From an uncultured virus (IMG/VR IMGVR_UViG_3300042898_002828) (taxonomy: Duplodnaviria > Heunggongvirae > Uroviricota > Caudoviricetes > Crassvirales): a DNA stretch of 64,000 bases. Location: IMG/VR virus record IMGVR_UViG_3300042898_002828; one strand, written 5' to 3'. Below, one piece after another: positions 23,101 through 62,118 of this stretch (the stretch's first letter is position 1; the number at the start of each line of letters is the position of its first letter). Below the pieces are notes generated by a model. The model worked only from the letters and a program-made list of their open reading frames with translations. It was not told the origin of the DNA and did no database searches. The translations under genes and the position numbers were made by a program.

Positions 23101-23698
23101 ACTTAAATCCAAAGTCTTTAAATTGGTAGTTTAATTGTGGTACGGTAAATTCCTCTTCTTTTCTTACTAAGTCGGGAGTAATAGTAGTTATACGTTTATT
23201 AAACTCTTCATTACTTAAAGTAAATTTAGATTCAACTTTTACTGCGGGTTTATTTGCTCTTGATTTAGGTGCAAGAACTTCCTCTGAATAAATATCGGGT
23301 TCGTAATAAACATATTCCTCTTTAGGTTTTATTTCAGGCTTTTTAACAATAGGTTTATTAGCCTTTGACGTAGGGGCATATTTTACTTCATTCCCACTAA
23401 ATGCTTCGGGAGCATAAGTAAATTGTTCGCCTGTTGGTGTTCCTAAAGATTTGTTGTCATTATTAGCATCTGCCTTAGACTTTGGTTGCACCAAAGAACC
23501 ATCCTTTGAAGGTAATTCCGTAACTTGTTCTTTTTTTTTTATTTCAGGTGCAGCCTCAGATATTACCATATCTTTATACACGGGGAACTTCTCAATCATT
23601 TTATTGGCAAGTTCCGTATCGGACATATCCTTGTATTGAGGATATTTGGTTTTTATCTTTTGCCCAAGTTGTTCTAATGTTAATTTTTCTTCTGGCAT
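11183..23698 (-). CDS. giant polyvalent internal virion (ejection) protein
   Basis: 4171 aa. ART-like ~20310-20740, JAB/RadC VHNHPSG ~18610, PRTase LVDDVATSGST ~17570, coiled coils. Follows the tail/ejection genes. Confidence 0.75.
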   Translation of the reverse strand: MPEEKLTLEQLGQKIKTKYPQYKDMSDTELANKMIEKFPVYKDMVISEAAPEIKKKEQVTELPSKDGSLVQPKSKADANNDNKSLGTPTGEQFTYAPEAFSGNEVKYAPTSKANKPIVKKPEIKPKEEYVYYEPDIYSEEVLAPKSRANKPAVKVESKFTLSNEEFNKRITTITPDLVRKEEEFTVPQLNYQFKDFGFKFEETGLGDAVSVTAPNGKRTTISLGRSADRDLQKFLKDNGGQYDKLAKSITNQENYNKTFVDQKEIEASFLKIQQDQNEFTKSVQDLYKTPKGTQEYNTKLAELQKKQTLIEGSKKDLSSSVGKYVTMKSSQGETSEYLWNQLMDGLTSAASGTAGLMIDAFAPSNMTDSEKKAAKKWIQPILRESLDFAKSESTTKEYAANVGFIEGAVGGLVKSLPAMLAAEAMPLIMAAQISDDLDVQMDSDPNFKNISENEKLFLKVPMMVGGAVLETYGFRNAIGTKGLLNDLVASAIGKSTKSTTTKTFKEFIEQDIESRIAKGAIKIGAGGLAEFETGASQELLDITTKDIYNAAKGKDMFQAPNTFGEGAKQVLKAGLQEAIGGFILSTPSAFSKAKKTNNYSEVTDGQIEVLKNLGNDANVITAIETDLQNKVNLGELTPIEAEEQLNDTRESVGVLNSINTEGMTPEQIKRALPIAKKLRDLKNKTDGKVNQTEADKFAINELKVSLDKITNEVKDQTPVADLIDKKVSFQGEEGVIVKDEGGKLTFETPNKIIELQGDEMANAIALPKIEVKGNNVKIDDELFNILSTNKNDNGDVVSVTLRNKEGQVITNKDADLATEISKQFKNKKDAIQEQTTEESVLRNQQPEMGLQEMGEGDTQETSEQGKTKEIAGSVGVGGDVKAVKTIDNGKVIVEDLTNNLKTKEDKVKALTEKLSSINYANVENNIEEFYSTIAERYFNGEERYKEVVHTVLGEYDIAGPGITKATEQSLKETPKEEVKPFSIDNKTKFYHATPSKIEGKLKVSNAPQFGTGIYLASDKKTVEGEFGDNVMELELNLSNPVYTNTKNWNEVESEAIRLADEEYGKKNNLTLGEDDTYFRYDPENLSEIDEIPSKHISDAAKKLGYDAIVDKGSRTYGDEIVVLDESKIIYPKPIKKQNNETENENGIQKRGTQGNENVPGKVQGQREKGGEDVNVPESKTKEEVKPTELQIKISSLQDKIETIKKGKEGKSQILQKIADTAIFDLQKKLNTLINKQNEAETKAKAKAKKADVLKGKPKSAVVETAAEKVKEKPVTNPRANKGEDVIWKDVNGKRGQGTVISVSKVGNSFEYEIKTKQGAVTTKKHSEIKKKGIGVLANTIKKYSNLDVLTPRTLILRYFATGGKVLYGTKQQDGALSQTGYAAEDLFGFISKNGRTYSQLYENIMDELQLEDFDQGDFNTMVSEILQGGKQSVYDEIKTHLVGEAKDLDDPINWSYNELLEVVGNENFPNREWIIEQIGEQERAIVDELSETELAELDKNIEKYTVNGITDWDAIANDNEVQQLESNKNENTENLLKGAVTKNGDSTPIGQEEKTGQQEIENIKENESNYILTPNKDLPFLSESGNDNYPTKGDLQREEDNSQGYSRSIIGVWNKTKDLQFTGTTKVRNAEDVAHIMRLLENKNVEHGFAVHVDAKGNSHIQYLSVGGTTGTVIDSKLVLAGLAKFKSKKVYLVHNHPSGALVPSKPDISITQTLQSALGKLDIDLEHVIMDTYSNKYVLLDKDADFTVEDRNKDLEDNSNLTVHVFNEQKVISIPQTKVTSSKTAAEFIQQLRFTAMPKNAMLLLSQNNDIIGNYVFKDKITYQECVDFIGKSGIGTSVIFYGNQQRESEAREVSDFLKKMSVNVLDHIITDSNGSDVVGYYRSLGEEGMLEETQTEYGTNSVSEPNVEIIDANAINKVLLHTNIQTLKGHPHYKKAKSGNVKLAYLLSVDLIKPEKLFPLKENPTAIIVPVRAIEQDGVNAIPLAMAKIMSEIFGNKIDLDIYQSNKPKHTGKSKLARMTSPPEFLGKIQKGLKYFLVDDVATSGSTLNNLKNYIEDNGGIVVGSTAIAVGRGGGKIGITDLEVKKINAKFGKSNINTFLKEYGIAESSEKLTSSQANDLLRFGTIDKIRNKLLVEGIGKARERVEPLDSEKQQNKVTESEISSNLAAIIKDTNVTIKKQGVEGKLLNEQEAKDLKKEIISKRAPKGKIIFGQGYLDDNGVFREAQDIRQNVFNYSQPYASKNINGIDVRIVDGLIRKNKDGKKYKTYLLYADGKIVGEFNSVADAKSVVGFIEDNLVKELPISKQKELSEQKIKELAAKIRSKKLSGLGVHLDFGITKTIYNGALEIAAREVEKGSKLGNAINKAIQWVDSKVGKNWNKGLFAKHLNDKYKVTLNGKEVEVEVDNSKPTAELINGFYSPLEDGIVKSKLDKATGRDWLKRLQGETESDELKWTGVADYLTENSDNIITKNNLLDYFKTNRIEIVEVTKIDASEGAFRGWTDVRLENHLINEMGADPEEISDMSRSEMITWANENGDRDYLGTGDTKFVQYQLEGQKENYKEVFVTLPVTEREKTINEKDKKTLADYVNSIRELNEFYANNKRFNDITAEDDLDYVYIQYVDERNDDILKKIAFDDIVEITKSKKAAKEYIEKRSKFIKPIDTIGMSTKANTIGSFSSSHFDEPNILVHLRMNTRTDAQGNKVLFLEEVQSDWGQTGKKEGFATNEKPKEVKVKDLPNLKIEEEDFWDSVSISASEPNSNISRALGRVTNIGKNKYEAVQLTEQGVETKIGEYRTRKEATNAILESKIFEGADKKTISAIPSAPFVMDTNAWTKLGLKVALKEAIKQGADKIAWTTGEQQNDRYDLSKSVKRVDFIKVGEDRYKYEALDLNSKRIAFDDNGTTSLKDIENMFGKDIAEKVKADKKGDLRLEGEGLKVGGKGMKGFYGSPTEGKLGIVGEVARSLTGQSPKTIEINKGKNEKLKAYQYDGTQDVSGMMGRDYLKKGDWIIETPSGFQMSFDTKSKEDALREFRDATEDTGSNVGEYSESTQYSIDITPELKESVESGIPLFKGLTPKEQSKQRIEAAKKAFIEKSKNMSSGGFQALPEFVELIKSYIADGIITAKEFIERFKDELPGVDLNEKLAVTQFDKIYKKATTVVDETTEEVKKTIATSRVYEGNVRAGVKRELEKLGLTRDVENQQEAKERAIEFVNTVGVETALEAVRNNDVSDAAGAYVWNEILERLDRKISKEKDSTKLAELEKEQAGLFNEFSRKALSGGRFSSALADIYQNSDIGYNVENKIQEYRDANNGQISEEVEEKFRELDAQYKEVKQKLAEAEERAIKAEGELAIKNIQEAAARTPKQKVTVSSKIRTETDWIVSRVKEAQLNRPGMFLSATPASLVWDGAVKIVAGTIKVTGRSAEAIAKGLEHIVKSDWYKSLSDSDKKEAEKQFSEFWVNKETIPGIAIKIPNGLIRRLVEEGATTIEEVVEGVKDVIKEEYPDITDREIRDAITQYGKIKNLSKDEILASIRKIKRIGRIVSALEDVNNKKRPLRSGLQRDKLDAQERALNKELRELMKELPIDAELEAKQQKTALDATKQRITNQIEDLQREIDKGMRVPLSKRSMAEDAELTNLKEKRDKLKIKHDEIFKDESFLQAKRLDATKKASQRAINDLRRRLKEKDFTKKEKSPLIKDSELLNLQAEKLRLREEYDKEIYKAKLNNRTKAEKTIDALWNAWGLTRLLRATGEFSFVGIQGLVLSISNPTYALKSFMTAMKFFGSESRTENWLNMIKSQEWYPEMRQSKLSISEPRGEATAREELFLSDAANFVWNILGSALKLKSKSAYDNWKRKSPFKAFERAAVGYLDTMRVLKFLDGREMLHERGIRFENDPQAFKDLADVVNTFTGRASIGPLEQIAPTLTKVFFSPRNWASALKQTILFPRQLYKWRNKSGTPGVSIANKIALLDYSKFIGLTMGLVIAAAMYYNDDDDDETGVETDPTSSDFGKIKIGNTRVDPWGGRIQQIVFLARMIAGSILKGSGEVVKLGTPYRAPTRLGLIGEQATNKLAPSASMIQKFLTTHEKNGVTVDQWGNPYSITEELKKNSYPIYWDTVKDLLQDDPTALDGLLAFYAFFGGGVNVYDKKTKPLSNRPIKELKELKEVQEVKGL

Positions 23699-40055: not shown

Positions 40056-42491
40056 TTAAAGTGGCCCTATGTCATTAAAAGATATATCTTGTTTATTATC
40101 ATAATTAGACTCAAATCTCTTTGGTGGTAACTTTAATTCTCTTTGGTTAATAAGTTCTGATTGATTTGAACTTTGGATGTTCAATCTCTTGTCTTTAGCG
40201 TCTTCTTTCTGTTTATTTATTGATGAAATTGAATTAGCTTCTATGCCAGCTAATTGCATATTGTAACTAAACTCTTCTGCCATTAATCCTTTTTTGAGTT
40301 CCGATTCTGCTGTTAGGGTTCTTATATCAAAGTTAGATTCTGCTTCAAGGATTTGGATTTTAGCCTGTGTTTCAAGTTGTATTTTTTGCATAGCTGTTTG
40401 AGATGCCATTTCTTGAGACTTTAATTGCTGTTGAGAAATCATTGCTTGTTTTTGCATTTCCATCTTTTCAGCTTGATCTTGCTTTTTAAGACGCTTCATT
40501 TTTAAGAGCTGATTTGCAAGTTTGAGGTTTTTGATTTCTCTTATATCAATAGCATCTTCAATATCAATATTCTTTTGGGCAAGTGCAATTTGGATATTAG
40601 CTTCCAATTGAGCTCTTTCCTCTTCGTCTGGACTTACCTCAATAAATATACCGAAATCAGATGCGTACAAATCTTTAATATCGTTTAAGATAGATACATT
40701 GTATTTTCCAATCTTATTAGCAAAATCATCTTTAAAATCAGAGTATTCAAGTATATCTGCAACTCTATATGTTAAAGCTTCGGACAGTGACCTAAATATA
40801 GATAAACTTGCATCTAAAATGTGTCGTGTTGCTGTGTTTGAGTTTGCTGCTGCTAATTTTTGTACTCCAACTAATGCGTTTGGGTCAGGAGTAGAGCCAT
40901 CTCTTGCCTCATTTAATCCTGTAACATCTCTAATCATACCTAAGTAGTGATTATAGTTAGCAATAAGCATCTGTAACTTACTTGCGCCCGAATTAGATGT
41001 AAGTTGTGTTATTGGAACTCTTGCATTATTAAATTCGCCATCAGATGTATAACTACGTCCTACAACACTACCTGTTTGAAAATACAGTCTTAATGCGTCT
41101 TCGGGAGTATATGTTCCCCCTTCGCCCATATCAACCTCGTTTATACCATCAGCGTCTATAAATACACCATCAGGAACTACTTTAGCTACAACTTGCTGTA
41201 ACTTTAAGTGAGTAATTTGAATTAAGTCAGCAAATGGAATCATTCTTCCGGCTAAAGGTTCATAGTTTCCTTTATACATTCTTGGGGCACACGCTATATA
41301 ATTTGATAAAGCATGTTGTGAGGCGGATTTTGGTCTAACCATATTTTCAGCCAATTCCCATTTAAGAACTATATTGGTACCCATAACCATTATGCCGTTA
41401 TACCAAACGTCAATTACTTTTTCTATTTTAGTAAAACGACCTTCTTCCATCATTTCTACAGGCGGATTGAACTGGTCATCTTTTTGAATTACACGAGAGC
41501 CACCTCCTTCAAGTATTTTTTTCTTAAAAACTACTTTTTTTGAAGTCTTGTAATTGTAATAAAGCAGCGTGCAGGTATCTTTTCTAAATACACTATTATC
41601 GTAATACTGTGATGAGTTATAATAGTCGTACCAACTTTGCGAATATTGAGATATTTTTTCAATATCCTCGGGTGTTAAACTTTGGTCTATTTTGTAAAGT
41701 TCTGTAACAGGAACTGTTTTTACCTCTCCCCAATAAAATACATCACCAAAATTAGGGTCTTCTGTATAGCTATTAACTATATAAGCAGGGTCTACATAAC
41801 ACACTTCAACACCTGCACCTGGCAGAAATTCGTGTTTACATATACCTATTCCTATTGTTGTTAAATCGTAATCAATTCGCTTTCTTATGTCATACCATTT
41901 GTTTTCTTCAAGTATTGTATTTATAGCCTCTTCTTCTGCTATTTCTATTGCAGGCTTATAGTGAAGTTGCATATAAAGACTTAACTCTTCATCGGTTGCA
42001 GGTAATTGGTCTGGAGGCATAACAAATGGGTCAACTCCTGTGGAATTTTGGATACTTGTTAAAATATCTTTAGCTACCATTTGCCCCTCTACCATATCCT
42101 GATATTTACTTCTCTTAGCTTGAGACATTGCATCCTGGGCAAATGCTTTTACTTTAAATAACCTATCAGACATCCCATTTACAACTATATCTACAAACTT
42201 TGGTATAATTGGAACGGGTGTCCAATCTAAGTTTAGGTGAGATAAGTCACCATCAACTGCCATTTCGCTTTTATATTTTTCTATTGACTGCTCCCCCCTT
42301 GCATACATTCTTAGTCTATGGTACCTGCCCATTCGGTCATAAAATCTACAACTTCCTTGGTCTTTTGAAAACCACTCCCACTGTATAGAATTTCCAATCA
42401 TTAATCCGTATTCTACAGTTGCTTTCTGTGTGTCAGACACAAATTGATTTGGAAAAACGGTTGCAGGAATAGTTATTTCTACCTCTTTCAT
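40056..42491 (-). CDS. portal protein
   Basis: 811 aa after terminase; WTPVPIIPKFVDIVVNG, VTGLNEARDG, Gln-rich C-terminal barrel. Confidence 0.8.
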   Translation of the reverse strand: MKEVEITIPATVFPNQFVSDTQKATVEYGLMIGNSIQWEWFSKDQGSCRFYDRMGRYHRLRMYARGEQSIEKYKSEMAVDGDLSHLNLDWTPVPIIPKFVDIVVNGMSDRLFKVKAFAQDAMSQAKRSKYQDMVEGQMVAKDILTSIQNSTGVDPFVMPPDQLPATDEELSLYMQLHYKPAIEIAEEEAINTILEENKWYDIRKRIDYDLTTIGIGICKHEFLPGAGVEVCYVDPAYIVNSYTEDPNFGDVFYWGEVKTVPVTELYKIDQSLTPEDIEKISQYSQSWYDYYNSSQYYDNSVFRKDTCTLLYYNYKTSKKVVFKKKILEGGGSRVIQKDDQFNPPVEMMEEGRFTKIEKVIDVWYNGIMVMGTNIVLKWELAENMVRPKSASQHALSNYIACAPRMYKGNYEPLAGRMIPFADLIQITHLKLQQVVAKVVPDGVFIDADGINEVDMGEGGTYTPEDALRLYFQTGSVVGRSYTSDGEFNNARVPITQLTSNSGASKLQMLIANYNHYLGMIRDVTGLNEARDGSTPDPNALVGVQKLAAANSNTATRHILDASLSIFRSLSEALTYRVADILEYSDFKDDFANKIGKYNVSILNDIKDLYASDFGIFIEVSPDEEERAQLEANIQIALAQKNIDIEDAIDIREIKNLKLANQLLKMKRLKKQDQAEKMEMQKQAMISQQQLKSQEMASQTAMQKIQLETQAKIQILEAESNFDIRTLTAESELKKGLMAEEFSYNMQLAGIEANSISSINKQKEDAKDKRLNIQSSNQSELINQRELKLPPKRFESNYDNKQDISFNDIGPL

Positions 42492-44746
42492 AAGTTTCTT
42501 ATTATTTTAGAAGATGAACCTTCATTATTATATTTAGCAAAATTAATACTTATTTTCTCATTTTTTACTTCTGGCAAATACTCGTGTTTTTGATTTGCCA
42601 TAATACACAATCCTGAGCTAATAGAGGCATCAAACTTTGTTCGGTCATTTATATCAAACCGCGCCCAATCTAAAAGAGTGTTATTAAAAAGCATTGAGCC
42701 TATTTGATCACTACTTCTGTATGTTCCAGACATATCAAATCCAATATGTTTTTCTATGTAGGTTTCTATTGCGCTTGCGTGAGCTTGTTTAATATCTTCA
42801 GACGAGTTCGGTATACCTCCGAGCTCTCTTTCTGTTGCTGATAGTTTAGCAAATTTCTTATCGGGTCTATTCATACTAAATGCACGATACCCTCTATTTT
42901 TAAAGTGATAAAGCAGCCTTGGTTTGTTGTTTTCTGAAAGTATGGGCATACCGTAAAAAACACACGCCATAAGTACATCTTCAAAAAATATTTCTGCTGT
43001 TTGTGGTCTTGCTATATACTCAAGGAAAAACTCATTTATAGGTGCTTCGTCCATATGGAACTTAGTCATACCGTGTAGTGAACCATTAGAGCCTCTACCA
43101 CCAACTACTGCTGATATATCATAAGGGTCACACCCAAATGTTCCTAGGTGTTCATTGCAAGGCATACACTTATCGCCTTTTCTTATTACTCTATTTTGTA
43201 AATGTTTTGGCGGCAACCACCCTACCAAAAATCTACCCCTAATATCGGGAGACCAAATTACTGTTGTATCCTTAATACCATCTTTCCATGTAAACGATCC
43301 TCTTGTAACATGATGGTCTATTATTATTGAATCGTTATAATCAATCTGTTGATAAATTTTAGTTAAATTAAATAATGAAGCCTCACTTTTATCCCTAAAA
43401 GCATGAGAAATACTTCTTGGAAACTGTCTGTAAAATTCATTTAAAGCATCTGAGTCGCTTTTTAATGAATCTACTTCCGCTTCCCAATAGTCTATTGCTC
43501 CATTTTTAATTAGTTTTCCATCTATTCCCATTACGGGAACATGTGGTTTTCTAAGAACAGGCATACCATATTTATCAATAAACCCTTCCATATTCCACTC
43601 CATAGGAATAAATAAAGAATATAATCCTGATTTAGTTTGTCCGTTGGCATTTCTATTAAGCACATCGGAATCTTCATACATCTCTTTAAACTCTTCTCCC
43701 CCCTTTTTGCGTGCGTTTACAGTAGAACCCATTTTGCATTTGCCAATTATTCTGCTTCCTAATCGCAAACACGTTTTATGTACACGCCATAACCCTAAAA
43801 GACTAATTGGTTTTAAGAATTTACCTGCTTCGTCTATAGATAAAAATATTAACTTTTCACCGTCATACGAGTTATCATCTGTACTTTTCCAATCTATTGT
43901 AGTATCAAGTCCTTCTGTTCCGACATTACCTGCCGAGTACATGTTGTTTTTAGTTATTTTACTTGCAGGTACTTTATAGGATAATTCTGTTTTAGGTTTA
44001 TCCATACCGTCCATAATAGGTTTAAAATAGAATGGCAATTTATTATTGATTGGGACAACCTTGTCAGTAAACATTTTTTTTGCATCTGCCCCGGTTGTTG
44101 AAAGTAATCCTATACGGGCATTGTTTGCCAACGTTCCTGTTTCTACCGCATCAGATGATGCTTCAAACGAGTGCCCCGACCTTCTAATCTTAGTATAAAT
44201 TTGCCCAAAAGACCTATCGTCTGCCTTACATGCCTCCCAGTGTATGTATTTTATTCTGTTGGCTTCACGAAAATCAGGATAACCAACATCAATGCTTGCA
44301 ACCTGTAAATAAAACCAATGTTGTCCTGTTAGATAAGTAGAAACTCCATTATTTTTAAACCAAAACCCGTGCTCTCTACAATCAAATTGTTGGTCAATGT
44401 ACGGCAACCAATTATTTTTAAATGCCGCAGGAGCATCGTTCCATTGGCTCATTGATTTTATTCTACTTAATTCAGGTGGAGGTATCTCCCTTTCCCAATA
44501 TTGGTCTTCTCTTTTTTTACTTCGTGAATAAATTTCTTTAGGTTCTTTTGGTAGAGCTATTATTAAGTTTTGTATTTTGTAAATTTCGCCTATTTCACCA
44601 TTTTTAGAAATTATTACAACATCGTATTTTTCATCGTATCCGTATTTCCATGACTTTGTAGCATTACGTCTTTGTATAATGCTCTTATCTATATAATCGG
44701 GTAAAACTGAAAATATATTATCTTCCTTTTGAATTACGTTCTGCAA
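42488..44746 (-). CDS. terL: terminase large subunit
   Basis: Walker A KIRRSGHS, Walker B LSIDEAGK, nuclease FGCDPYD. Confidence 0.85.
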   Translation of the reverse strand: MQNVIQKEDNIFSVLPDYIDKSIIQRRNATKSWKYGYDEKYDVVIISKNGEIGEIYKIQNLIIALPKEPKEIYSRSKKREDQYWEREIPPPELSRIKSMSQWNDAPAAFKNNWLPYIDQQFDCREHGFWFKNNGVSTYLTGQHWFYLQVASIDVGYPDFREANRIKYIHWEACKADDRSFGQIYTKIRRSGHSFEASSDAVETGTLANNARIGLLSTTGADAKKMFTDKVVPINNKLPFYFKPIMDGMDKPKTELSYKVPASKITKNNMYSAGNVGTEGLDTTIDWKSTDDNSYDGEKLIFLSIDEAGKFLKPISLLGLWRVHKTCLRLGSRIIGKCKMGSTVNARKKGGEEFKEMYEDSDVLNRNANGQTKSGLYSLFIPMEWNMEGFIDKYGMPVLRKPHVPVMGIDGKLIKNGAIDYWEAEVDSLKSDSDALNEFYRQFPRSISHAFRDKSEASLFNLTKIYQQIDYNDSIIIDHHVTRGSFTWKDGIKDTTVIWSPDIRGRFLVGWLPPKHLQNRVIRKGDKCMPCNEHLGTFGCDPYDISAVVGGRGSNGSLHGMTKFHMDEAPINEFFLEYIARPQTAEIFFEDVLMACVFYGMPILSENNKPRLLYHFKNRGYRAFSMNRPDKKFAKLSATERELGGIPNSSEDIKQAHASAIETYIEKHIGFDMSGTYRSSDQIGSMLFNNTLLDWARFDINDRTKFDASISSGLCIMANQKHEYLPEVKNEKISINFAKYNNEGSSSKIIRNL

Positions 44747-44993
44747 ATCCCTGTGATGAATGTGATAATGTTCCTTCTGTTAAACTAAGTTGTTCTGCGT
44801 CTATCCTGGTAAGTATATCAAAAGCATCAAACACGGCTATTTTTTTACATTGAGCCGCATTTTTTAATCTATCTGAGCTAACATCATCTTCAGTATTTGT
44901 TATAATCGGCTCTTCAATTACCTTGATTAGCTCTTCTACGCCTTTTCTTCCTGCATCAATGATTAACTGCTTGTACTCTTCTGTGCTTTTCAT
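44718..44993 (-). CDS. putative terminase small subunit
   Basis: Small helical protein overlapping the terL start; position only. Confidence 0.4.
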   Translation of the reverse strand: MKSTEEYKQLIIDAGRKGVEELIKVIEEPIITNTEDDVSSDRLKNAAQCKKIAVFDAFDILTRIDAEQLSLTEGTLSHSSQGFAERNSKGR

Positions 44994-45556
44994 AGTTTAA
45001 TTACAATAGCGTGGTCAAACATTCGATAAAGTTTCTCTCCGTCAATTATAAAAGGATACTCCGATTCAGGCTTAAAGCAAACCTTATCTCCAGCAACCAC
45101 CCCCTTGGACTCTAGGTATTCATTACTGTATTTTATTACGCCAATTAACGGTTCTTCGTCAATGTGTTTTTTAATGCTTAAATTATCTATTACCGGAATG
45201 GGTTTTACAAAACAATACCTGCCTTGAGTCTCCCATTTATTCCCGTTGTTGTATCCAAAAAACTGTTCTTCATTAACAATAAATAAATCATCTTTTAAAA
45301 ATGAACCTGAGTTTTTGCGTTGACCGTACATGTCATTATAAAACTTCATTACGTTATGGTGGACTATCAATGTTGCACCTATTTCAATATCACCCTTATA
45401 TCCAATAGGCAATTCTATTACTTTGGCAAATCTATTAGATGCCAGGTGGTCTTCCTCAGATACGCTTGTTATTAATTCTACACCTGCAATATTTGTAGTA
45501 TTATCGTAGCGTTTTCCTCCAATTGGCTTTACTATAAAATTATCAGGACTTCTCAT
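44990..45556 (-). CDS. GroES-like protein, apparently two tandem GroES folds
   Basis: NFIVKP...AKVIELP..IEIGATLIV and YCFVKP...GVIKY..GVVAGDKVCF..IIDGEKLYRM. Confidence 0.55.
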   Translation of the reverse strand: MRSPDNFIVKPIGGKRYDNTTNIAGVELITSVSEEDHLASNRFAKVIELPIGYKGDIEIGATLIVHHNVMKFYNDMYGQRKNSGSFLKDDLFIVNEEQFFGYNNGNKWETQGRYCFVKPIPVIDNLSIKKHIDEEPLIGVIKYSNEYLESKGVVAGDKVCFKPESEYPFIIDGEKLYRMFDHAIVIKL

Positions 45557-46319: not shown

Positions 46320-46549
46320 AAATAAAATTAGGTCAACTTAAAAAAGTATCAAACCATAAAAGAAAGTTTGGTTCAGCATTATCTTACAATGCGGTTTATG
46401 TAGAGTTTGATAACGGTAACACCGTTGTGTTATTATTATCTGATGTTGAAATTGCCGATGCAATAAAACGTTCGGACAATAATTTAGAAGATATTCCTAA
46501 ATTGCATTTACCGATACTTAAACGTATTGCAACATACTTTAATATGTAA
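46316..46549 (+). CDS. hypothetical protein
   Basis: ATGA-coupled ORF. Confidence 0.55.
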   Translation: MKIKLGQLKKVSNHKRKFGSALSYNAVYVEFDNGNTVVLLLSDVEIADAIKRSDNNLEDIPKLHLPILKRIATYFNM

Positions 46550-46550
46550 A

Positions 46551-47192
46551 ATGATTATTAGTTTAATACACCCGTCTAGAGGTAGAGCTAAAAAGGCATT
46601 TAAAACGTATTCTGACTGGATGCTTAAATCTTCGTGCAGTCATACTATTGAGCACATACTATCTGTTGATTTCGATGACATTGAATTAAAAAATTATAAG
46701 TTTTTATTTGGTACTATTGAAATAAATGACAATAAATCAGTAGTAGATGCTACTAATATAGCTTGCAAAAAAGCAATTGGCGATATTTTAGTTTACCTTT
46801 CCGATGATTTTAATTGTCCTGATAATTGGGATGAATTAATAGTTGATGCTTTTGGAGATAAGATTAATGAGCCTTGTTGCATTAAAGTTGATGACTGCTT
46901 GCAAAGGTTTGATGTAGCGGTTCTTACAATACCAATAATTACTAAACATTTATATAATAAATTAGGTTATTTTTGGCATCCAGAATATAAATCTATGTTT
47001 GTAGATGAAGACCTTTTTTGGACATGCAATAATAATGATTGGTTATTAAAAGTCCCTTATTTAAGGTTTGAGCATCATCATCCTGCAAATGGTAAGGCAT
47101 TAAACGATGAGACGTATATACGTAGTGCTGCAAATTGGAACCAGGGTAAAGAGGTGTACTCAAAACGTAAATCATTAAATTTCCCGCTGTGA
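46551..47192 (+). CDS. GT-A fold glycosyltransferase
   Basis: ISLIHPSRGR, VYLSDDF, FVDEDL, FEHHH. Confidence 0.7.
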   Translation: MIISLIHPSRGRAKKAFKTYSDWMLKSSCSHTIEHILSVDFDDIELKNYKFLFGTIEINDNKSVVDATNIACKKAIGDILVYLSDDFNCPDNWDELIVDAFGDKINEPCCIKVDDCLQRFDVAVLTIPIITKHLYNKLGYFWHPEYKSMFVDEDLFWTCNNNDWLLKVPYLRFEHHHPANGKALNDETYIRSAANWNQGKEVYSKRKSLNFPL

Positions 47193-47746
47193 AATTATCA
47201 ATTCTAATACCTTCTTTAGAGATTCGAGCATCTCAGTTAAATAAACTGATTAAAAATTTAGAGTCTCAAAAAACTAGTGATGTAGAAATAATTTCTTTAG
47301 TTGACAATAAGCAAATGTCGACAGGCGCAAAAAGGCAAAAGTTATTAGAAATGTCAATAGGAAAATACATAGTTTTTATTGACGATGACGATACTGTGCC
47401 TGAATATTATGTTTCTGAAATGCTAAAAGGATGCGAAACTGGTGCTGATTGCATGGCTATCAATGGGTATATAACAACCAATGGAGTTAACCGTATTGAT
47501 TGGAGAATTTCAAAGGATTACGACAATATCACTATAATTGAAAGAGGTAGGAGTGTTTATCTTAGAAAAACTAACCATATTACAGCGGTTAAAAGAGATT
47601 TAGCATTGCAAGCGGGGTTCCCTGATAAATCTTTGGCAGAAGATAAGGCATACAGTGATTCTTTATCAAGATTTTTAAAAACAGAGCATAAGATTCTTTT
47701 AAATATGTATCATTACGATTTTCAAACTGCAAACAAACAATATTAA
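47189..47746 (+). CDS. GT2-family glycosyltransferase
   Basis: LSILIPS, GAKRQKLL, YIVFIDDDD, AED. Confidence 0.85.
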   Translation: MKLSILIPSLEIRASQLNKLIKNLESQKTSDVEIISLVDNKQMSTGAKRQKLLEMSIGKYIVFIDDDDTVPEYYVSEMLKGCETGADCMAINGYITTNGVNRIDWRISKDYDNITIIERGRSVYLRKTNHITAVKRDLALQAGFPDKSLAEDKAYSDSLSRFLKTEHKILLNMYHYDFQTANKQY

Positions 47747-48460
47747 ATGAAAAAAACAGTAGTATCATTCGCTGACGGTTCAGGTAACTACGCCAAGGCA
47801 TTAATGAGATTAGAACAATCTTTGCGCCAAGTAAATTTTGAAGGTCAATTTAAAGGAATAAACGATTACGGGCACATAGGTTCACCGCATCATAAAGGAA
47901 GCCCAGGTGCAGTACCTTATGCCTTTAAAGCACTTTCAATTAAAAAGGCTATAGAAGAAGGTGCTGATTTAATTCTATGGTGTGATAGTGTAGTTTACGC
48001 TACAAAATCAATAAATCCTATATTTGAGTATATAGAAAAAAGTGGGGTACTTTTATTTGATAATATAGGTTATTCCATTGGAGATTACACTTCTGATTAT
48101 TGTCTTGATTATTACAATATGACGCGAGAACAAGCTTTTAATAATAAAATGATAATGGCTTGCGTTATGGGGTTTAATATTCATAATCCAACTGCTAAAG
48201 AGTTTTTAGATCAATATATTTCTGCATCCGAATTAGGAGTAAGTTCTCCTTACAATGGAGATTGGAGTAATAATAATCTAGAAGTTTCAAATGATATGAG
48301 GGTAAAAGGCCACAGGCACGACCAAAGCGTTGCTTCTGTTCTTGCAGAGCAAATGAATATACCAATTATAAATGCTCAAAGCACCTTTTTCGCTTATGAA
48401 TCTCACAAAGGAATAGTACCAGTATCTAACAATGTATGTTTATGGTCAGGAGGAATTTAG
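47747..48460 (+). CDS. putative glycosyltransferase
   Basis: YAFKALSI, ILWCDS, HRHDQSV motifs. Confidence 0.55.
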   Translation: MKKTVVSFADGSGNYAKALMRLEQSLRQVNFEGQFKGINDYGHIGSPHHKGSPGAVPYAFKALSIKKAIEEGADLILWCDSVVYATKSINPIFEYIEKSGVLLFDNIGYSIGDYTSDYCLDYYNMTREQAFNNKMIMACVMGFNIHNPTAKEFLDQYISASELGVSSPYNGDWSNNNLEVSNDMRVKGHRHDQSVASVLAEQMNIPIINAQSTFFAYESHKGIVPVSNNVCLWSGGI

Positions 48461-49089
48461 AATACGCAAAACAAATAGCTTTTTCAAGCGAAGAAACATT
48501 AATGTTTTCTTACGAGTGTGCTTTAAACATGAAAAACACAGATGGAGATTATGTTGAATGCGGTGTTGCTGCTGGAGCTCAAATCATAGCAATGGCCACT
48601 GCTTCCCCAAATAAGATTATCCATGCTTTTGATTCTTTTGACGGTATTCCCTTACCTTCTAATCGTGATGACCAAATGCCTGGAATTAGATACTTAACTA
48701 AAGAAGAACAAAAAGATTTACCTAATGCCGGTGAACAAGAATTGGTATCAAGCGGAGCAACTGTAATTCCTTTGGATGGATTTATACATAATCTAATGAA
48801 ATGCGATATTAATTTAAGTAATATTACAATTCATAAAGGCTGGTTTGAAGAAACGTTACCTAAGACATCTATCGGTAAAATATCTATATTAAGACTTGAT
48901 GGTGATTTATATAATTCAACATTAGTTTGCTTGCAATACTTATTTAATAATGTAATTGAGGGCGGTATTGTAATTATTGACGATTACGAATTAGAAGGTT
49001 GCAAAAATGCTTGCGATGATTACTTTAAATCAATAGGCTACGAACCAAAATACAAAAAGATTTCTAACATATCATATTTTATAAAATAA
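48436..49089 (+). CDS. TylF/MycF-family sugar O-methyltransferase
   Basis: VECGVAAG, AFDSFDG, KGWFEETL, LRLDGDLYNST, GGIVIIDDY. Confidence 0.85.
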   Translation: MFMVRRNLEYAKQIAFSSEETLMFSYECALNMKNTDGDYVECGVAAGAQIIAMATASPNKIIHAFDSFDGIPLPSNRDDQMPGIRYLTKEEQKDLPNAGEQELVSSGATVIPLDGFIHNLMKCDINLSNITIHKGWFEETLPKTSIGKISILRLDGDLYNSTLVCLQYLFNNVIEGGIVIIDDYELEGCKNACDDYFKSIGYEPKYKKISNISYFIK

Positions 49090-49697
49090 TGTACTCACAA
49101 AACGCAGAAGAAAACTATATAATTGACTATTTTGGTAATTTTAAAGGAAGCCTACTTGATATAGGCGCTAACGATGGAAAAACATTTTCAAACTCTTTAA
49201 AATTAATAGAATTAGGTTGGAAAGCTACCCTTATTGAGCCTTCACCAAAAGCATTTAATAAATTATCAGAGCTTCACTTTGGAAATAACAATGTAACATG
49301 TATTAATACTGCAATAGGAACTAAAAATGGCACCATGATTTTACACGAATCAAGCCATCATAATAAAGACCAAAAAGACATAGCACTTCTTAGCTCTTTA
49401 AAAGAATCTGAAACTGAAAGATGGAAAAAATCAGGAGTAAAATTCAATCAATGCGAAGTTAATGTATCTACATACAAAAAAGTGTTTGAAACTAGTGTAT
49501 TTGATTTTATAACAATTGATGCAGAAGGTTACGATTTAGAGATATTACGTCAAATAGACCTAACAGACACTAAACTATTATGTATTGAGTGGAATACCAA
49601 CGATCAGGCTAAAGGTCAAATATTAGAATACACAATTAAATTTGGAATGAATAAAATAATTTATGTTTCAGGTGAAAATTTATTAATAGGAAGATGA
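49089..49697 (+). CDS. FkbM-family methyltransferase
   Basis: YSQNAEE, LDIGANDG, IEPSP, ITIDAEGYDLEIL. Confidence 0.85.
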   Translation: MYSQNAEENYIIDYFGNFKGSLLDIGANDGKTFSNSLKLIELGWKATLIEPSPKAFNKLSELHFGNNNVTCINTAIGTKNGTMILHESSHHNKDQKDIALLSSLKESETERWKKSGVKFNQCEVNVSTYKKVFETSVFDFITIDAEGYDLEILRQIDLTDTKLLCIEWNTNDQAKGQILEYTIKFGMNKIIYVSGENLLIGR

Positions 49698-50443
49698 CAC
49701 GATTAGCTGCTATTTATAATTGTTTTGCTGATAGTTCAGAATTACTACCATACAGTCTTAATTGCCTAATTGGTCATGTAGATGAAATAATAATAGTTTA
49801 CCAGGATGTATCTAACTACGGAGAGCCAATCCCATTTGAGAAACTATCAGACAAATTCATAAAAAATATATTTTCAAATTTTACATACGTTAAATATTCC
49901 CCAAACTTTAGTTTCTCAGGCACCGTAAACGAAACATTAAAACGTAATTTAGGAATACAATCAGCAAAAGAAAGTGGATGTACGCATTATTTCTGTTGCG
50001 ATTCCGATGAACTATGGGAAAACTTTAGTCTAGCAAAACAACAATACTTTGATTCGGGCCACAAAGCATCAGTAGCATCTATGTGGACATTCTTTAAAGA
50101 CCCAACCTTACGTTTTCAAAACAAAGACAATTATTATGTTCCATTCATTTGTGAGCTAACACCAGAGTCAAACGTAGGAAATAACCGATGTAAATACATC
50201 TGCGACCCTACTAGAAAACCAAACGAGCAAGACGTTATTTTAATAGAAGAACCTATGTGGCATTATTCTTGGGTACGCAAAGACATCCTACTCAAAGTAA
50301 GAAACAGTTCCGCCCAAGTAAATATAGGGAACTCAAATAGACTGCACGATTACAGAAACCCCGATTGTAAAGAAGGATATTATGTTAAAGACTTCCAACA
50401 AAAACTAATCAAAGTAGAAAACACATTTAACATTAACATATAA
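49694..50443 (+). CDS. putative glycosyltransferase
   Basis: VDEIIIVYQ, KRNLGI, FCCDSDE, MWHYSWVR. Confidence 0.65.
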   Translation: MTRLAAIYNCFADSSELLPYSLNCLIGHVDEIIIVYQDVSNYGEPIPFEKLSDKFIKNIFSNFTYVKYSPNFSFSGTVNETLKRNLGIQSAKESGCTHYFCCDSDELWENFSLAKQQYFDSGHKASVASMWTFFKDPTLRFQNKDNYYVPFICELTPESNVGNNRCKYICDPTRKPNEQDVILIEEPMWHYSWVRKDILLKVRNSSAQVNIGNSNRLHDYRNPDCKEGYYVKDFQQKLIKVENTFNINI

Positions 50444-50468
50444 AAAAAAGCACCCGGATAAGGTGCTT
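50442..50468 (-). terminator. terminator between convergent genes
   Basis: AAGCACC-CGGATAA-GGTGCTT with A-run. Confidence 0.65.
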
Positions 50469-50492
50469 AATTTGTGTGTTGGTTTAAACTTC

Positions 50493-50813
50493 TTAAGCTA
50501 TAGCTATAGAAGTAATAAGTTGTTGAGTAGATCCAACTAACGGCAATACAGGAACAATAATTGTGTCTGGATTAGATGCAGCGCTGTTAGCAAGAGCCAA
50601 AGCGTCAATTACTGCGTAGTGAGACTGATAAGTAGCATCAGCGGTAGTAAATGTAATTGTAATTACATCAGAAGCAGCGTGTCCCTCATAAAGGTGAAGC
50701 AATACAGTGCTTGTTGAAGGCATTGTAATAAAATAATCTGCATTAGCAGAAATTAAAGTCTTTGGCAATGCATTTGCTGCGCCAACTGTAAATTGTAAAT
50801 ATTTTCTGTTCAT
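50493..50813 (-). CDS. hypothetical, possibly virion protein
   Basis: Ala/Thr-rich; own TATTTTTG box at 50829-50822 and own terminator. Confidence 0.55.
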   Translation of the reverse strand: MNRKYLQFTVGAANALPKTLISANADYFITMPSTSTVLLHLYEGHAASDVITITFTTADATYQSHYAVIDALALANSAASNPDTIIVPVLPLVGSTQQLITSIAIA

Positions 50814-50858
50814 AGTGGATACAAAAATAGTAATTTTTTAAATAAAAAATAAAGCCCA

Positions 50859-51524
50859 TTAACCTTTTGACTTATTAGGAGTCTGAATACTATCATAAAA
50901 CCAATAATCTTCCCCCGCAACCTTTTCTAAACTAATCTTATTCTCTTTATACATACCTAACATATCAGTATGAAATCTTCCACCTACTTTACCAACACCA
51001 TGCTTAATACCTAAACAAATCATTTCCTTAGGTAAAAACGTTAACTTATTCTTAATATTAATCCATAAATGACTATCCGTATAAGGATAATCATCAGCAG
51101 GCCAACTAAAATCTAAATCCGCCTTAATTAACGTACTCATCATACTACTTCTTTTCTCATGACGAAAAACAAAATCCTTCCTTAGCCCCAAATGATAGTA
51201 AATAGTATAATTAGGCCCAAACAAATCAGGCCTACCTAATCTATCCCACTCAGAAACCATAACCTCAATATACCTAGGACTATACCAGTCATCACTTTCT
51301 ATAAACAAAATAACATCCAAGCCACAATTCCTAAGCTTATCATAACCATACCTATACCTAGGCGTTATATCACAATCATCACTAACAGGAGCATAATCAA
51401 CAACCTCTATAACCTCAGGTTTTAAAGTCTGCCTATCCATCATCCTATAATACTGTTCCATAAACAAAGGCCTATCACCTCTATCAGGAGTAATAACCCC
51501 AACCCTAATCTGTGTTACACTCAC
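50859..51524 (-). CDS. GT-A fold glycosyltransferase
   Basis: VGVITPDRGDR, ILFIESDDWYSPRYI; promoter TTG-N20-TATATTTG at 51590-51560. Confidence 0.6.
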   Translation of the reverse strand: MSVTQIRVGVITPDRGDRPLFMEQYYRMMDRQTLKPEVIEVVDYAPVSDDCDITPRYRYGYDKLRNCGLDVILFIESDDWYSPRYIEVMVSEWDRLGRPDLFGPNYTIYYHLGLRKDFVFRHEKRSSMMSTLIKADLDFSWPADDYPYTDSHLWINIKNKLTFLPKEMICLGIKHGVGKVGGRFHTDMLGMYKENKISLEKVAGEDYWFYDSIQTPNKSKG

Positions 51525-52540
51525 CAGTACAAATTATACAGTTACACTCATTCATGCCACAAATATAAATCTCACACACTTATATTGCAATCAATTAGAT
51601 AAAAAAGTAATGAGATAGATAGATGTGTGAGGTTGACCCCCCGTATTACAAACGTGGCCCGAAAATAAAAACCGATTTTTTTTGATCCGGGGGGGGTCTC
51701 GTTTTTAACTTTTACTGTGAAATTTTCAGCTTTTGCATTCCCGGGGGTTGTGCAGGTGCCACGGTCCTGTTGCTGGATGGTGTTTGTTGCGTTACATTCT
51801 GCAAAATAATTGCATAGAAGCATTTTAATAAATTATATATGTTACTCCTTATCTATGTAGGGGCAAAGGTAGATAATTGAACACGGGGCAAATAAACTAT
51901 ATCCTTTACCTTGTCTGTTGTTGTGTTGGATTGTTTTAATTTAATCCTACTTAACATAATGTAGATTATATAACTTTAACTGTTTGTTGTCGTTTGTTGG
52001 ATTTATTTTGTCTCCACCGTGTGGCGAAATTAGCTTATGCATATGTTCTGGGGTTTTTTGGGGTGGTTTGCATGGTCCCGGGGAGGGGTTAACCTCCCTT
52101 TAATCCCCTTTTAAACTTTCTTTTTTGCTCTGATCCTGAAAATATTAAATTTCTTTTTCTCTTTTTTTATTGGCTCCTATTGGGTTGTGGGTTTATTTTG
52201 CAAAAAATTATTTTTTTTATTTCCTTCTTTAGTCTTGTTATGTAGAACTATTCTAAATTGTTTTGTACATGTGGTTTTATTGGTAGTTTGGCACGGTATT
52301 AGCAAAGGTTTTTTTATGTCCTTTTTATTGGGTTTTTGATCTCTTTTTAGTCTTTGTTGGTTCCTTTGTTTTCAGGGGTTCCGGAGGTTATGTCTAGTAT
52401 TGTTTATTTTAGTGTATTATTTATTAGATTTTTAGAGTTTGGCACGGTTTGCTTGTTCCCTTTGTTTGCGGGGTTTGGCACGGTTTTTAATTTTTGGTAT
52501 TGGGTTTGTAATGTAAGTAGTACAATTAAACGAAAAACAA
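51525..52540. other. non-coding control region / possible genome end or replication terminus
   Basis: No credible ORF, strand-skew inversion, C6/G8 inverted tracts, divergent transcription. Confidence 0.6.
51949..51976 (-). other. dif-like XerC/XerD site
   Basis: - strand AAGTTATATAA-TCTACA-TTATGTTAAGT (11-6-11). Confidence 0.7.
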
Positions 52541-59791: not shown

Positions 59792-59893
59792 ATGAAAATC
59801 TTTAAAAATAAATCCCCATTCCTTACATTGCACTTTGCATATTCTATGCACGTGATGAGCCTTTGTATTGGATGGGGTTATTTTTATAAATGA
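59792..59893 (+). CDS. 33-aa leader peptide coupled to initiator
   Basis: MKIFKNKSPFLTLHFAYSMHVMSLCIGWGYFYK*; ATGA overlap with 59890. Confidence 0.45.
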   Translation: MKIFKNKSPFLTLHFAYSMHVMSLCIGWGYFYK

Positions 59894-60489
59894 GAGATTC
59901 CTGTATTTTTTACCGTAGTTTTTATGAATCAATTAACGAACTACCAGACATAAACAAATTAGAAATTTACAACGCTATTTTTAGCTATTCTTTGAACTTT
60001 ATTGAGCTTGAATTAACAGGTTTAAGTAAATCTATTTTTACATTAATAAAACCACAACTTGATGCTAATATCAAGCGTTTTAATAACGGTAATATACCAA
60101 AAGATAAGCAAACAAAAAGCAAAACAGAAGCAAAACAGAAGCAAAAAGAAAGCAAACGTGAAGCTAATAACAATGTAAATAACAATAACAATGTAAATGA
60201 TAATAAGAATAAAGAAGAAAAGATAAATTTTGATATTTTTTATAATTTATATGATAAAAAAGTAGATGGCAAGGATGCTAAATTAAAATGGGATAGATTA
60301 GATTTACAAACTCAACAACTAATATTATCGGTAGTTCCTAAATACATAAAATCCACCCCTGATAAGCAATTTAGAAAATCGCCTTTGGTTTACTTAAATA
60401 AAAAGGCATGGGAGGATGAAATTATTATAGAAAAAGAGTTTAACAAACCAGTACAAACATACAAAGAACCAATATCAAAATTATTATGA
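59890..60489 (+). CDS. replication initiator (DUF6291-like N-terminus)
   Basis: DSCIFYRSFYESI start, internal repeats, FDIFYNLYDKK...KSPLVYLNKKAWEDE; upstream of DnaB. Confidence 0.75.
   Translation: MRDSCIFYRSFYESINELPDINKLEIYNAIFSYSLNFIELELTGLSKSIFTLIKPQLDANIKRFNNGNIPKDKQTKSKTEAKQKQKESKREANNNVNNNNNVNDNKNKEEKINFDIFYNLYDKKVDGKDAKLKWDRLDLQTQQLILSVVPKYIKSTPDKQFRKSPLVYLNKKAWEDEIIIEKEFNKPVQTYKEPISKLL
60106..60210 (+). repeat. putative origin: 11-bp iterons plus AT-rich repeats
   Basis: AAGCAAA at 60106, 60117, 60128, 60139, 60150 and AAGCTAA at 60161; AACAATGTAAAT twice. Confidence 0.7.
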
Positions 60490-60710
60490 GAAAAATAAGA
60501 TTAGAATACTCAAGAGAGCAAGGATGTTTTCACTTTGAAAATGTTAATAAGGACAATAAAAATACATTTAGTTATTTTACAATTAAAAATGAGGTTGATA
60601 GTGATATAGCTTCTGAATTTGTAAAAATGTATGATAGTAAATATCCTAAAAGAAATATATCAATCCAGGCAATGAAAGATGAATTTAATAACTTTATCAA
60701 TGGAAGGTAA
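60486..60710 (+). CDS. hypothetical protein, apparent paralog of 58231-58491
   Basis: IRLEYSREQGCFHFEN versus YRLEFNEKQQNFHLDN. Confidence 0.6.
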   Translation: MRKIRLEYSREQGCFHFENVNKDNKNTFSYFTIKNEVDSDIASEFVKMYDSKYPKRNISIQAMKDEFNNFINGR

Positions 60711-62118
60711 ATTACCACCACAGGCAATAGATTTAGAAGAAATAGTAATAGGGGCTGCAATGCTTGAAAAAACGGCATTTGGTAAAGTATCAACTATTTT
60801 AGATAAAAAAGATTTTTATAAGGAGCAACATAGTATAGTTTGGGATATTATGAGTGAACTATATAATGAAAATTTACCAATAGATATTATGTCTGTTATT
60901 GAAAAGTTAAGGTCAAAAGGTAAATTAGATTTAATAGGTGGTGCGCATTTTATAAGCCAACTAACAATAAGGGTTGCTTCTGCTGCAAATATTGAATATC
61001 ATTCTACAATTATAAAACAGTTATCACTACAAAGAAATATTATTGAACTTTCAACGGATTATTTAAATAAAGCATGGGAAAATGGAATAGACCCTTTTGA
61101 ATTTAGTAAAGAATTTGCATGGAAACTTGAAAATATTACATCTTCACTTACTCCCGATATGAGAGATATAGGTAAAGTTGCTAAATTAACTTACAGTATG
61201 ATGCGTGAAGCAAGTTTAAATGAAAGTGATATAATTGGGTATCCAAGTTCAATAAGTGCCTTAAATGATAAATTATTAGGCTATTCTGCACCCGATTTTA
61301 CAATAGTTGCAGCAGGAACCGGAGAAGGTAAATCTACGTTTATGTTAAATGAAGTTAAGGCACTTGCAAAACAAGGCATTCCATGTGCTGTATTTAGTTT
61401 AGAAATGAACGATTATCAACTATTATGGAAAATGTTTAGTTCTGATTTAGATATAGATGTTAAAAGTATAAGAAAGGGTAAAATGGATGAAGGTAGATGG
61501 GATAGTTTAAGTGATAATGTTAAAGAATATGCAAAGATGCCAGTTTACTTTTATGATTCAGGGGGATTAACGATAGAAAAGTTTTGTGGTATTGTTAAAG
61601 AAGCTGTAAGGAAAAACGGTGTAAAAATGGTTTTTATAGATTATATACAGTTGCTTATGGTTCAAAATGCTAAAGACTTTGGTAATAGAGAGGGTCAGGT
61701 TAATTTTATATCTAAAAGGATTAAACGATTAGCAAGGGAATTAAGCATACCTATAATGGCTTTAAGTCAATTATCAAGATTAGAAAAAGGAACTAAAAGA
61801 AAATATAAACTTTCGGATTTAAGAGAATCTGGAGCATTAGAACAAGATTCAGATAACGTAATATTTTTATATAATCCATCTTATCATGGAGTTGAAGAAA
61901 TGGAATTTTATGATAAAAACGAAAACGGAAATTATGAGAAACAAACTATTGCATTTGATCATGAAGATTGTTTAATTTTGATAGAAAAATGCAGATTAGG
62001 AGAAACAGGAATAGTAAGATGTAAATTTAAAGGTAAATTTTCACGACATGAAGATTTACCAAATAGCCAACGAATACAAAAGACAGAAGATTTTAGTTTT
62101 AACGATAGACCTTTTTAA
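60700..62118 (+). CDS. dnaB: replicative DNA helicase
   Basis: GKLPPQAIDLEE, AAGTGEGKST, IDYIQL, LSQLSR, SDLRESGALEQDSD. Confidence 0.95.
   Translation: MEGKLPPQAIDLEEIVIGAAMLEKTAFGKVSTILDKKDFYKEQHSIVWDIMSELYNENLPIDIMSVIEKLRSKGKLDLIGGAHFISQLTIRVASAANIEYHSTIIKQLSLQRNIIELSTDYLNKAWENGIDPFEFSKEFAWKLENITSSLTPDMRDIGKVAKLTYSMMREASLNESDIIGYPSSISALNDKLLGYSAPDFTIVAAGTGEGKSTFMLNEVKALAKQGIPCAVFSLEMNDYQLLWKMFSSDLDIDVKSIRKGKMDEGRWDSLSDNVKEYAKMPVYFYDSGGLTIEKFCGIVKEAVRKNGVKMVFIDYIQLLMVQNAKDFGNREGQVNFISKRIKRLARELSIPIMALSQLSRLEKGTKRKYKLSDLRESGALEQDSDNVIFLYNPSYHGVEEMEFYDKNENGNYEKQTIAFDHEDCLILIEKCRLGETGIVRCKFKGKFSRHEDLPNSQRIQKTEDFSFNDRPF

Follow-up and report, generated by a model that had tools for sequence, protein, structure and literature searches.

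The uncultured tailed phage analysed here carries a 28 bp sequence that is very probably a site for the recombinases XerC and XerD, judging by its match to bacterial dif sequences. It lies at 51949-51976 on the minus strand of the window (the whole stretch of DNA analysed, 64,000 nucleotides) and reads AAGTTATATAA TCTACA TTATGTTAAGT, with two 11 bp arms, an inner 5 bp palindrome and a 6 bp centre in an 11-6-11 layout. We give even chances to the fuller proposal, in which XerC and XerD of a Bacteroidota host would bind and recombine the site and the exchange would be phage-with-phage, during the lytic cycle.

Phage genome and strand-switch gap

The phage was placed by its terminase large subunit (42488-44746, minus strand), which is 70% identical to that of MW202828, 45% identical to that of Elemovirus and 33-37% identical to those of Pachyviridae and Pervagoviridae. 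Cultured phages of the latter two families infect Flavobacteriaceae. These identities suggest an Elemovirus/Pachyviridae-like phage of Bacteroidota, placed as related to those groups only. A relative with 98% terminase identity, G261, spans both ends of the window with only about 1.04 kb absent from it, so that the window represents about 98% of a genome of ~65 kb. All 24 runs listed as containing the phage DNA are lake metagenomes, and no RNA run is listed.

The window ORFs include terminase, portal, capsid-type proteins, GroEL/GroES, an iteron-bearing initiator and DnaB. The replication initiator (DUF6291, phrog_270-like) is at 59890-60489 and the DnaB-like helicase at 60679-62118, both on the plus strand. 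No integrase or tyrosine recombinase was found among the 57 ORFs and 30 further small or gap ORFs of the window, which bears out an earlier statement, made from the sequence alone, that no integrase is visible; the same 57 and 30 ORFs include no recognised partition or repressor family. The GroES and GroEL pair is at 8568-10393, and a second GroES-like gene (44990-45556, minus strand) precedes the terminase, as in Elemovirus. Within the virion block, 11183-23698 (minus strand) encodes a 4171-aa protein in which residues 1628-1733 form a RadC-like JAB domain and which also weakly resembles phosphoribosyltransferases and WbsX; among the compared genomes it is common only to the window and G261, and it is possibly an injected multi-domain anti-defence protein.

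A gene-poor gap of about 1 kb, 51525-52540, separates the late genes on the minus strand from the divergently transcribed early genes on the plus strand, and it probably is the genome-end (terminal repeat) region. The dif-like site is inside it, so its claimed non-coding location holds. The 83-codon ORF at 51572-51823 is unlikely to be a gene, and promoter and terminator scans of the gap gave no more than the shuffle level. Three copies of an 11 to 15 bp repeat at 52286-52487, ahead of the first early gene, are kept in G261 and are candidate promoter or regulator sites. On its other side the gap is adjoined, at 46527-51524, by clustered genes for glycosyltransferase-like proteins and methyltransferases (GT2, TylF, FkbM) that may modify the phage DNA or the virion.

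A dif-like site in the gap

The two arms and the centre of the site can be assigned by comparison with host sites. The XerC-binding arm (51966-51976, minus strand), assigned as such from its position and its likeness to host sites, is identical in G261. The central region TCTACA (51960-51965, minus strand; TCTATA in G261) departs from the common Bacteroidota spacers at position 2, and its final three bases are host-like. The XerD-binding arm (51949-51959, minus strand) is canonical, unlike the degenerate arm of the TLC or GGI attP, and its G at position 27 occurs in 8 of the 30 host sites listed. Immediately past this arm is an AG (51947-51948, minus strand) that was outside every search pattern and is also found on host and other phage sites, following the XerD arm in 12 of the 30 host sites listed and in 14 of 21 representatives of phage flank clusters.

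The window contains no second place of this kind. Scored against a host profile, the site reaches 24.7 bits and the runner-up 11.0, the profile having been built from 26 Bacteroidota genome sites after four of 30 host loci (L320, L321, L322 and L326) were left out for their atypical spacers. No order-2 Markov simulation of the window among 300 reaches 24.7 bits and three reach 20; this test is partly circular because the seed with which the profile sites were collected overlaps the window site, and independent checks therefore weigh more. The sequence-only reading had reported an 11-6-11 dif-like site at exactly this position, and these scores confirm it. The short description on which that report relied (ATAA, 6 bp, and the XerD arm of E. 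coli with a single mismatch) carries little weight by itself, being matched in 14 of 100 shuffles of the 33% GC window.

Other DNA in one of the lake samples (run X3) carries a nearly identical dif word: a 31-letter contig with a depth of 37, where that of the phage is about 11, matches window positions 51947-51974 with one difference.

Likeness to Bacteroidota chromosomal dif

Comparison with chromosomal dif sites of Bacteroidota, which had been suggested as a check, identifies the sequence as a Bacteroidota-type XerC/XerD site with 24 to 25 of 28 positions identical to the nearest of them. The dif sites predicted for Cytophaga hutchinsonii and for Amoebophilus asiaticus each differ from it at 4 of 28 positions, and that predicted for Flavobacterium johnsoniae at 9 of 28; Dyadobacter fermentans dif is also among these predictions (Kono et al. 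2011, PMC3025954). We also searched 201 Bacteroidota genomes with a pattern and obtained 47 matches in 44 of them. This raw count barely exceeds that of the reversed control (about 30), and the evidence is instead the common left arm and spacer, which were outside the search pattern and which most of the 30 loci listed share; all 30 are non-coding. The closest host sites among those listed (L317 and L318) have three differences from the window site and come from an order-level sample around a genome titled Cytophagales. The nearest host sites thus appear to be of Cytophagales type.

Five host sites on long contigs could be placed on their chromosomes. The GC skew turns from plus to minus at four of the five, and KOPS point toward the sites 18 times and away three times, so the host sites tested behave as true replichore termini. 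All five genomes tested that have such sites encode a XerD above the cut-off together with a paralogue. One bacterial contig (L556), whose CysN is 44-51% identical to those of five Bacteroidota genomes, has a spacer identical to the TCTACA of the window.

Conservation, loss and spacer drift among relatives

The site is kept in a close relative and in a sister clade, and most relatives are without it; the suggested check of conservation in related phages thus came out in its favour in part of the group. In G261 it has the same place and differs at position 27 and at one spacer base, within surrounding DNA that is 86% identical; this retention is consistent with selection and is no proof of it. 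The site is not better conserved there than its flank. The 28 bases recur unchanged in another relative, which is 92-95% identical, and no variants inside the site are among the rows listed for four runs. The sister clade (G019, G292, G253 and G243; 63-65% terminase identity) carries the site in the same gap, and in an alignment of these four with 56% mean column identity the arms are the longest conserved block, while the spacers are CATCCA, TTGTCA and TTTGCA. G019 and G292 are only 0.03 apart on the terminase tree. The orientation differs, with the XerC arm facing the late block in the sister clade and the XerD arm facing it in the window.

When 20 sequence sets were scored with the host profile, seven reached 20 bits and 13 were at or below 17.2, with reversed controls reaching up to 14.2. 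The figure of seven in 20 overstates the frequency of the site because G253, G243 and G242 were found through the motif itself. At least six of the site-negative relatives contain the whole gap. The site is optional, and most relatives lack it. Three gains or losses are needed on a quick version of the terminase tree, from which G243 and G271 were excluded because their terminase is split over two pieces and in which G242 is a long branch.

No good intergenic match was found in the eight cultured phages searched; three of the four weak matches were inspected and all are in or overlap ORFs, the one in elemoA_7-9A being rejected as chance because it is inside an annotated gene. Among 18 matches in the search of relatives, 12 were inspected and only those in G261 and G292 are intergenic and canonical. 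Several broader searches were rejected as tests of conservation: blastn of the site against cultured phages returned chance-level rows only, 80 terminase-neighbour loci gave one weak match, 118 such loci gave 15 weak matches against 15 in controls, and 18 whole records gave four against 17. Many of the terminase-neighbour loci are fragments that do not include the strand-switch gap. Among the compared genomes we found no gene private to those with the site that would be a candidate Xer activator.

The motif in other viruses

A 22-base pattern has 28 exact matches in IMG/VR and none when reversed, and all 28 are outside ORFs. When any spacer length between 3 and 10 bases was allowed, the spacer was 6 bases long in 38 of 44 viral matches, 4 in five and 9 in one; the five with a 4 bp centre and the same arms are L605, L610, L611, L614 and L632. 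A looser pattern gave 125 matches at 120 loci, of which 46 are inside ORFs and which must in part be due to chance for that reason.

The 36 other site-bearing viral records range from 15 to 326 kb, apart from one 7 kb fragment, and 35 of them have a single copy. A tyrosine recombinase (PF00589) is encoded in two, 11 and 22 kb from the site, and is absent from 34. These two (L329 in G249 and L330 in G241) combine a dif-like site with a 280-aa XerA-like enzyme, and their terminases are about 30% identical to that of the window. The window's terminase has relatives in at most 16 of the 36, a count that includes some listed without a match, and in none of the large genomes among them. The motif thus recurs, intergenic and in single copy, in several unrelated phage groups that have no detected gene in common. 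At least two groups of large phages (L274, L276, L277, L278, L282, L288, L295 and L296) contain the same Bacteroidota-type dif once each, on contigs of 133-326 kb except for L278, an 89 kb piece, and no tyrosine recombinase was found in them. We also note tandem dif-like sites on two viral contigs, L092 (5001-5090; two, 64 bp apart) and L158 (4718-4819; several, 38 bp apart).

The 52 distinct sites fall into 21 flank clusters. Of 35 phage spacers, no more than 9 are also among the host spacers seen, and a single 13-member phage cluster has seven different ones. Spacer positions 3 and 6 are fixed, in 31 and 32 of the 35 respectively.

Genome ends and the proposed role of the site

Several observations suggest a connection between the site and the genome ends. 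The Pachyviridae relative Gundel, a Tenacibaculum phage, has predicted short terminal repeats (PMC8776804), and its annotated 322 bp repeats are in the strand-switch gap equivalent to that of the window, so that the gap, whose nature the sequence-only reading overlooked, is probably the genome-end region here as well. A clade-wide non-coding motif is located in the gap at 51637-51740 (plus strand), comprising a C6, A/T tracts, a G8 at 51689 and a TTTTCAGCTTTT-type block, and containing an inverted pair (I12). A pattern for this G-run motif finds it in 10 of 20 sequence sets and a profile adds G253, G003 and elemoA; it occurs once per genome at the late/early switch, in relatives with and without the site and in Elemovirus, and it is a candidate packaging or terminus signal. 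The profile has no match at the ends or repeat of Gundel. In all six clade members that have the site, representing two independent lineages, the site ends at most 288 bp from the G-run.

The site is within 1.2 kb of a contig end in 8 of the 36 site-bearing contigs where 2.2 would be expected; the records are not independent, and assemblies that break in variable DNA could produce such an excess. Contig depth is doubled near the site in one of four runs, which two strains would explain equally, and depth in the four runs shows no terminal repeat. A further case is in Escherichia phage Gotham (MT682716), in which a dif-type site with a host-like XerD arm is inside the annotated 459 bp end repeat. 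Gotham, a Vequintavirus, resembles the window phage in being a tailed phage with a single dif-type site, and differs in belonging to another host phylum and family and in having an annotated repeat, where that of the window phage is deduced.

The most likely scenario is that host XerC and XerD would bind the site and that the recombination partner would be another copy of the same phage site, since spacers differ between near-identical phages and often differ from host dif. If a short direct terminal repeat contains or adjoins the site, an incoming linear DNA or a concatemer junction would have two direct copies of the site, and Xer could circularise the genome for theta replication, or excise, unlink or multimerise genome units. 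A site inside the end repeat would serve to circularise the incoming genome, as theta replication by a phage with an iteron initiator and DnaB would need, or to process concatemer junctions; a site just outside the repeat would serve to resolve or unlink circular multimers. Relatives lacking the site presumably anneal their repeats instead, many of them having Sak and exonuclease genes. Because the arms are conserved, the spacers drift and no dif-flanked prophage has been found, phage-with-phage recombination is favoured over integration, and the joining or resolving of genome ends by host Xer would be our leading, unproven, model.

We put forward more tentatively a general form of this model, in which lytic tailed phages of several unrelated families, with genomes between roughly 30 kb and more than 300 kb in size and hosts in different phyla, would on repeated occasions have put into their terminal repeats a host-type dif whose spacer is private, where XerC and XerD of the host would circularise the incoming genome or process concatemers.

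Alternative explanations

The sequence-only reading proposed that the phage persists as a circular replicon or integrates via host Xer. The first of these, a carrier state in which host XerCD and FtsK would resolve dimers of a circular plasmid-like replicon at cell division, as they do for large plasmids, is unlikely. Large FtsK-dependent plasmids do carry 28 bp sites of this kind, in which canonical arms flank a central region peculiar to the site (PMC11724359), and the window does have an iteron initiator and DnaB. The proposal that the iteron-bearing initiator fits this picture stands as far as the iterons themselves, which are real 11 bp tandem units at 60098-60163, and fails in its link to the site, for the site-bearing G019 and G253 have a VapE-type primase (the label is taken from the annotation of MW202828) and an SF2 helicase in place of the initiator and DnaB, like relatives without the site. 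Since these two carry the site with a different module, the initiator is unconnected to it, and an association of the site with the initiator-DnaB module was rejected. Plasmid-like persistence is also poorly matched by the absence of a recognised partition or repressor gene and by the position of the site, which on the 65 kb circle is 8 kb from the iterons and not opposite them. As the site is neither opposite the origin nor tied to the iteron initiator, the lifestyle proposed earlier is a weak deduction.

Strand composition and KOPS bear on the same question. The skew does switch near the site, as had been claimed, with a local minimum at about 51600 and a global minimum at 45949, but the polarity is minus to plus, the opposite of that at a host dif terminus, and it tracks the divergent transcription. 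There are three KOPS in the window and the nearest points away from the site; a KOPS-type octamer, GGGNAGGG at 52080-52087 (plus strand), lies 104 bp off the site on the XerC side, points away and is missing in G261. Over 45 loci KOPS polarity appeared to favour the site, with 25 toward and 6 away, but this was gone after flank clustering and was rejected: of 21 flank clusters six are toward, four away and 11 tied, which is not significant. Two phage clusters do have KOPS toward the site, by 13 to 0 and by 9 to 0, in keeping with a carrier state. The former is a 13-member cluster (L272, L275, L281, L291, L293 and kin) in which the KOPS-type octamers are often less than 100 bp from the XerD arm, a polarity that offers a hint of FtsK activation in that group.

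Rather improbable is a role in binding without productive recombination, in which phage copies of the site would titrate XerCD or recruit topoisomerase IV and FtsK, and so unlink phage DNA or disturb host segregation. Conserved arms and a free spacer are predicted equally by binding alone, and the orientation of the site varies between clades. However, the fixed spacer positions 3 and 6 and the strict 6 bp length fit a catalytic synapse, and a decoy would profit from several copies where one per genome is seen.

Integration, in which the site would be an attP recombined with chromosomal dif by host XerCD and the phage a large tailed IMEX, we hold to be less probable again. No recombinase was found in the window, the spacers of the window (ACA) and of G261 (ATA) both have a host-type XerD half, and the bacterial contig L556 has the identical spacer; the host-like spacer end and this contig are what leave integration some probability. 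Prophages at dif, which had been named as something to look for, were absent from the terminase-bearing genome loci examined, although the true host may be unsequenced: a terminase scan of 185,579 species genomes gave 13 loci, and order-level genomes had matches in 4 of 351 and 4 of 301, none of those examined in either set being flanked by dif. The sister-clade spacers drift freely, and no joints or loose ends at the site are among those listed for four runs, contigs being prone to drop rare forms.

The attP signatures of known elements also differ from the window site. The CTX attP comprises two inverted sites. In other IMEXs the signature is homology on the XerC side only (VGJ) or a degenerate XerD arm (TLC, GGI) (PMC5357621). 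The window has a single site without a second inverted copy, with a mismatch on the XerC side and a canonical XerD arm, and it is of none of the CTX, VGJ, TLC or GGI types. The proposal of integration via host Xer thus gained no dif-flanked prophage and no known attP signature, and is opposed by spacers that drift among close relatives.

One nearly complete relative is embedded in a 3 Mb contig of a genome titled Saprospiraceae (G021:C33, about 4,500-56,000; L543, L544 and L210). It has no integrase or dif, is opened at the strand-switch gap and has an abrupt left junction with no dif or att repeat there, which counts against integration at dif; it may be a chimera or an unusual insertion. A second long-contig case (L217) was rejected as a prophage at dif, there being no dif-like match near the phage genes.

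That the sequence is not a Xer site at all, but an AT-rich pseudo-palindrome arisen by chance or an operator bound by some protein of the phage, is very unlikely: the low GC content, the shuffle matches to the short pattern and the two changes in 28 in G261, no better than an 86% identical flank, would allow it, but not the simulations, the 28 matches against none in the control, the agreement with published host dif predictions that extends to the asymmetric XerD arm and the AG extension, the presence in unrelated phage groups and the conserved island in the sister clade.

Comparison with known Xer systems

The window site shares with the chromosomal dif of Bacteroidota (PMC3025954) its 28 bp 11-6-11 layout, its single intergenic copy and its canonical XerD arm. 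It is unlike chromosomal dif in being on a phage, in its central region, in not being opposite the origin, in its minus-to-plus switch and in having no evident convergence of KOPS in this genome. The plasmid Xer sites (the 28 bp FtsK-dependent xrs of R27 and other large plasmids, and cer and psi with their accessory sequences; PMC11724359) are similar in having host-type arms and an unconserved centre on a second replicon, and in both plasmids and phages the unconserved centre can be read as recombination of self with self. Differences are that the window phage is tailed, has no sign of plasmid maintenance and has its site in a probable genome-end gap, and that sites of the cer/psi type are accompanied by about 200 bp of accessory sequence with an ArgR/ArcA box by the XerC arm, whereas the phage flanks are unconserved in the sister clade.

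IMEXs (CTXphi, VGJphi, TLCphi, GGI and the dif-type double-jelly-roll prophages; PMC5357621, PMC12715192) are likewise mobile elements with a dif-like site and no recombinase, and the phages described in these two sources are small, non-tailed and integrated at dif, whereas the window phage is tailed and no integrated form of it was found. An inovirus at dif has also been described (bioRxiv 10.1101/633727). The literature found on Xer use concerns plasmids, islands, inoviruses, gokushoviruses and double-jelly-roll phages; the parts of PMC3384302 consulted hold no Bacteroidota data, and our search for dif or Xer together with tailed, lytic, jumbo, crAss-like or Bacteroidota phages, in literature lying mostly outside subscription, found no such site in tailed phages.

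Hijacking of Xer has been described in plasmids, in genomic islands and in phages that are small, lack a tail and integrate at dif. Recombinase-free tailed phages with a host-type dif near their ends, repeatedly gained and lost, would point to an undescribed role of this core enzyme in circularisation, concatemer processing or carriage. If this is true, xerC, xerD and ftsK become candidate host factors for such phages; the arms may also provide a host-group marker for uncultured phages. Should the terminal-repeat reading be correct, mobile elements would have a third use for Xer, in addition to the resolution of plasmid dimers and the integration of IMEXs, with the private spacer preventing recombination between phage and chromosome.

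A close parallel to the proposed joining of genome ends is in phage P1, in which Cre/loxP circularises the terminally redundant DNA. P1 Cre/loxP resembles the model in that a tyrosine-recombinase site acts on the phage's own DNA. P1 encodes Cre itself, and its loxP is opposite the P1 origin (PMC11724359), whereas the window phage would depend on the enzyme of its host; the terminal-repeat reading, if true, would thus describe a Cre/loxP-like step with a borrowed enzyme.
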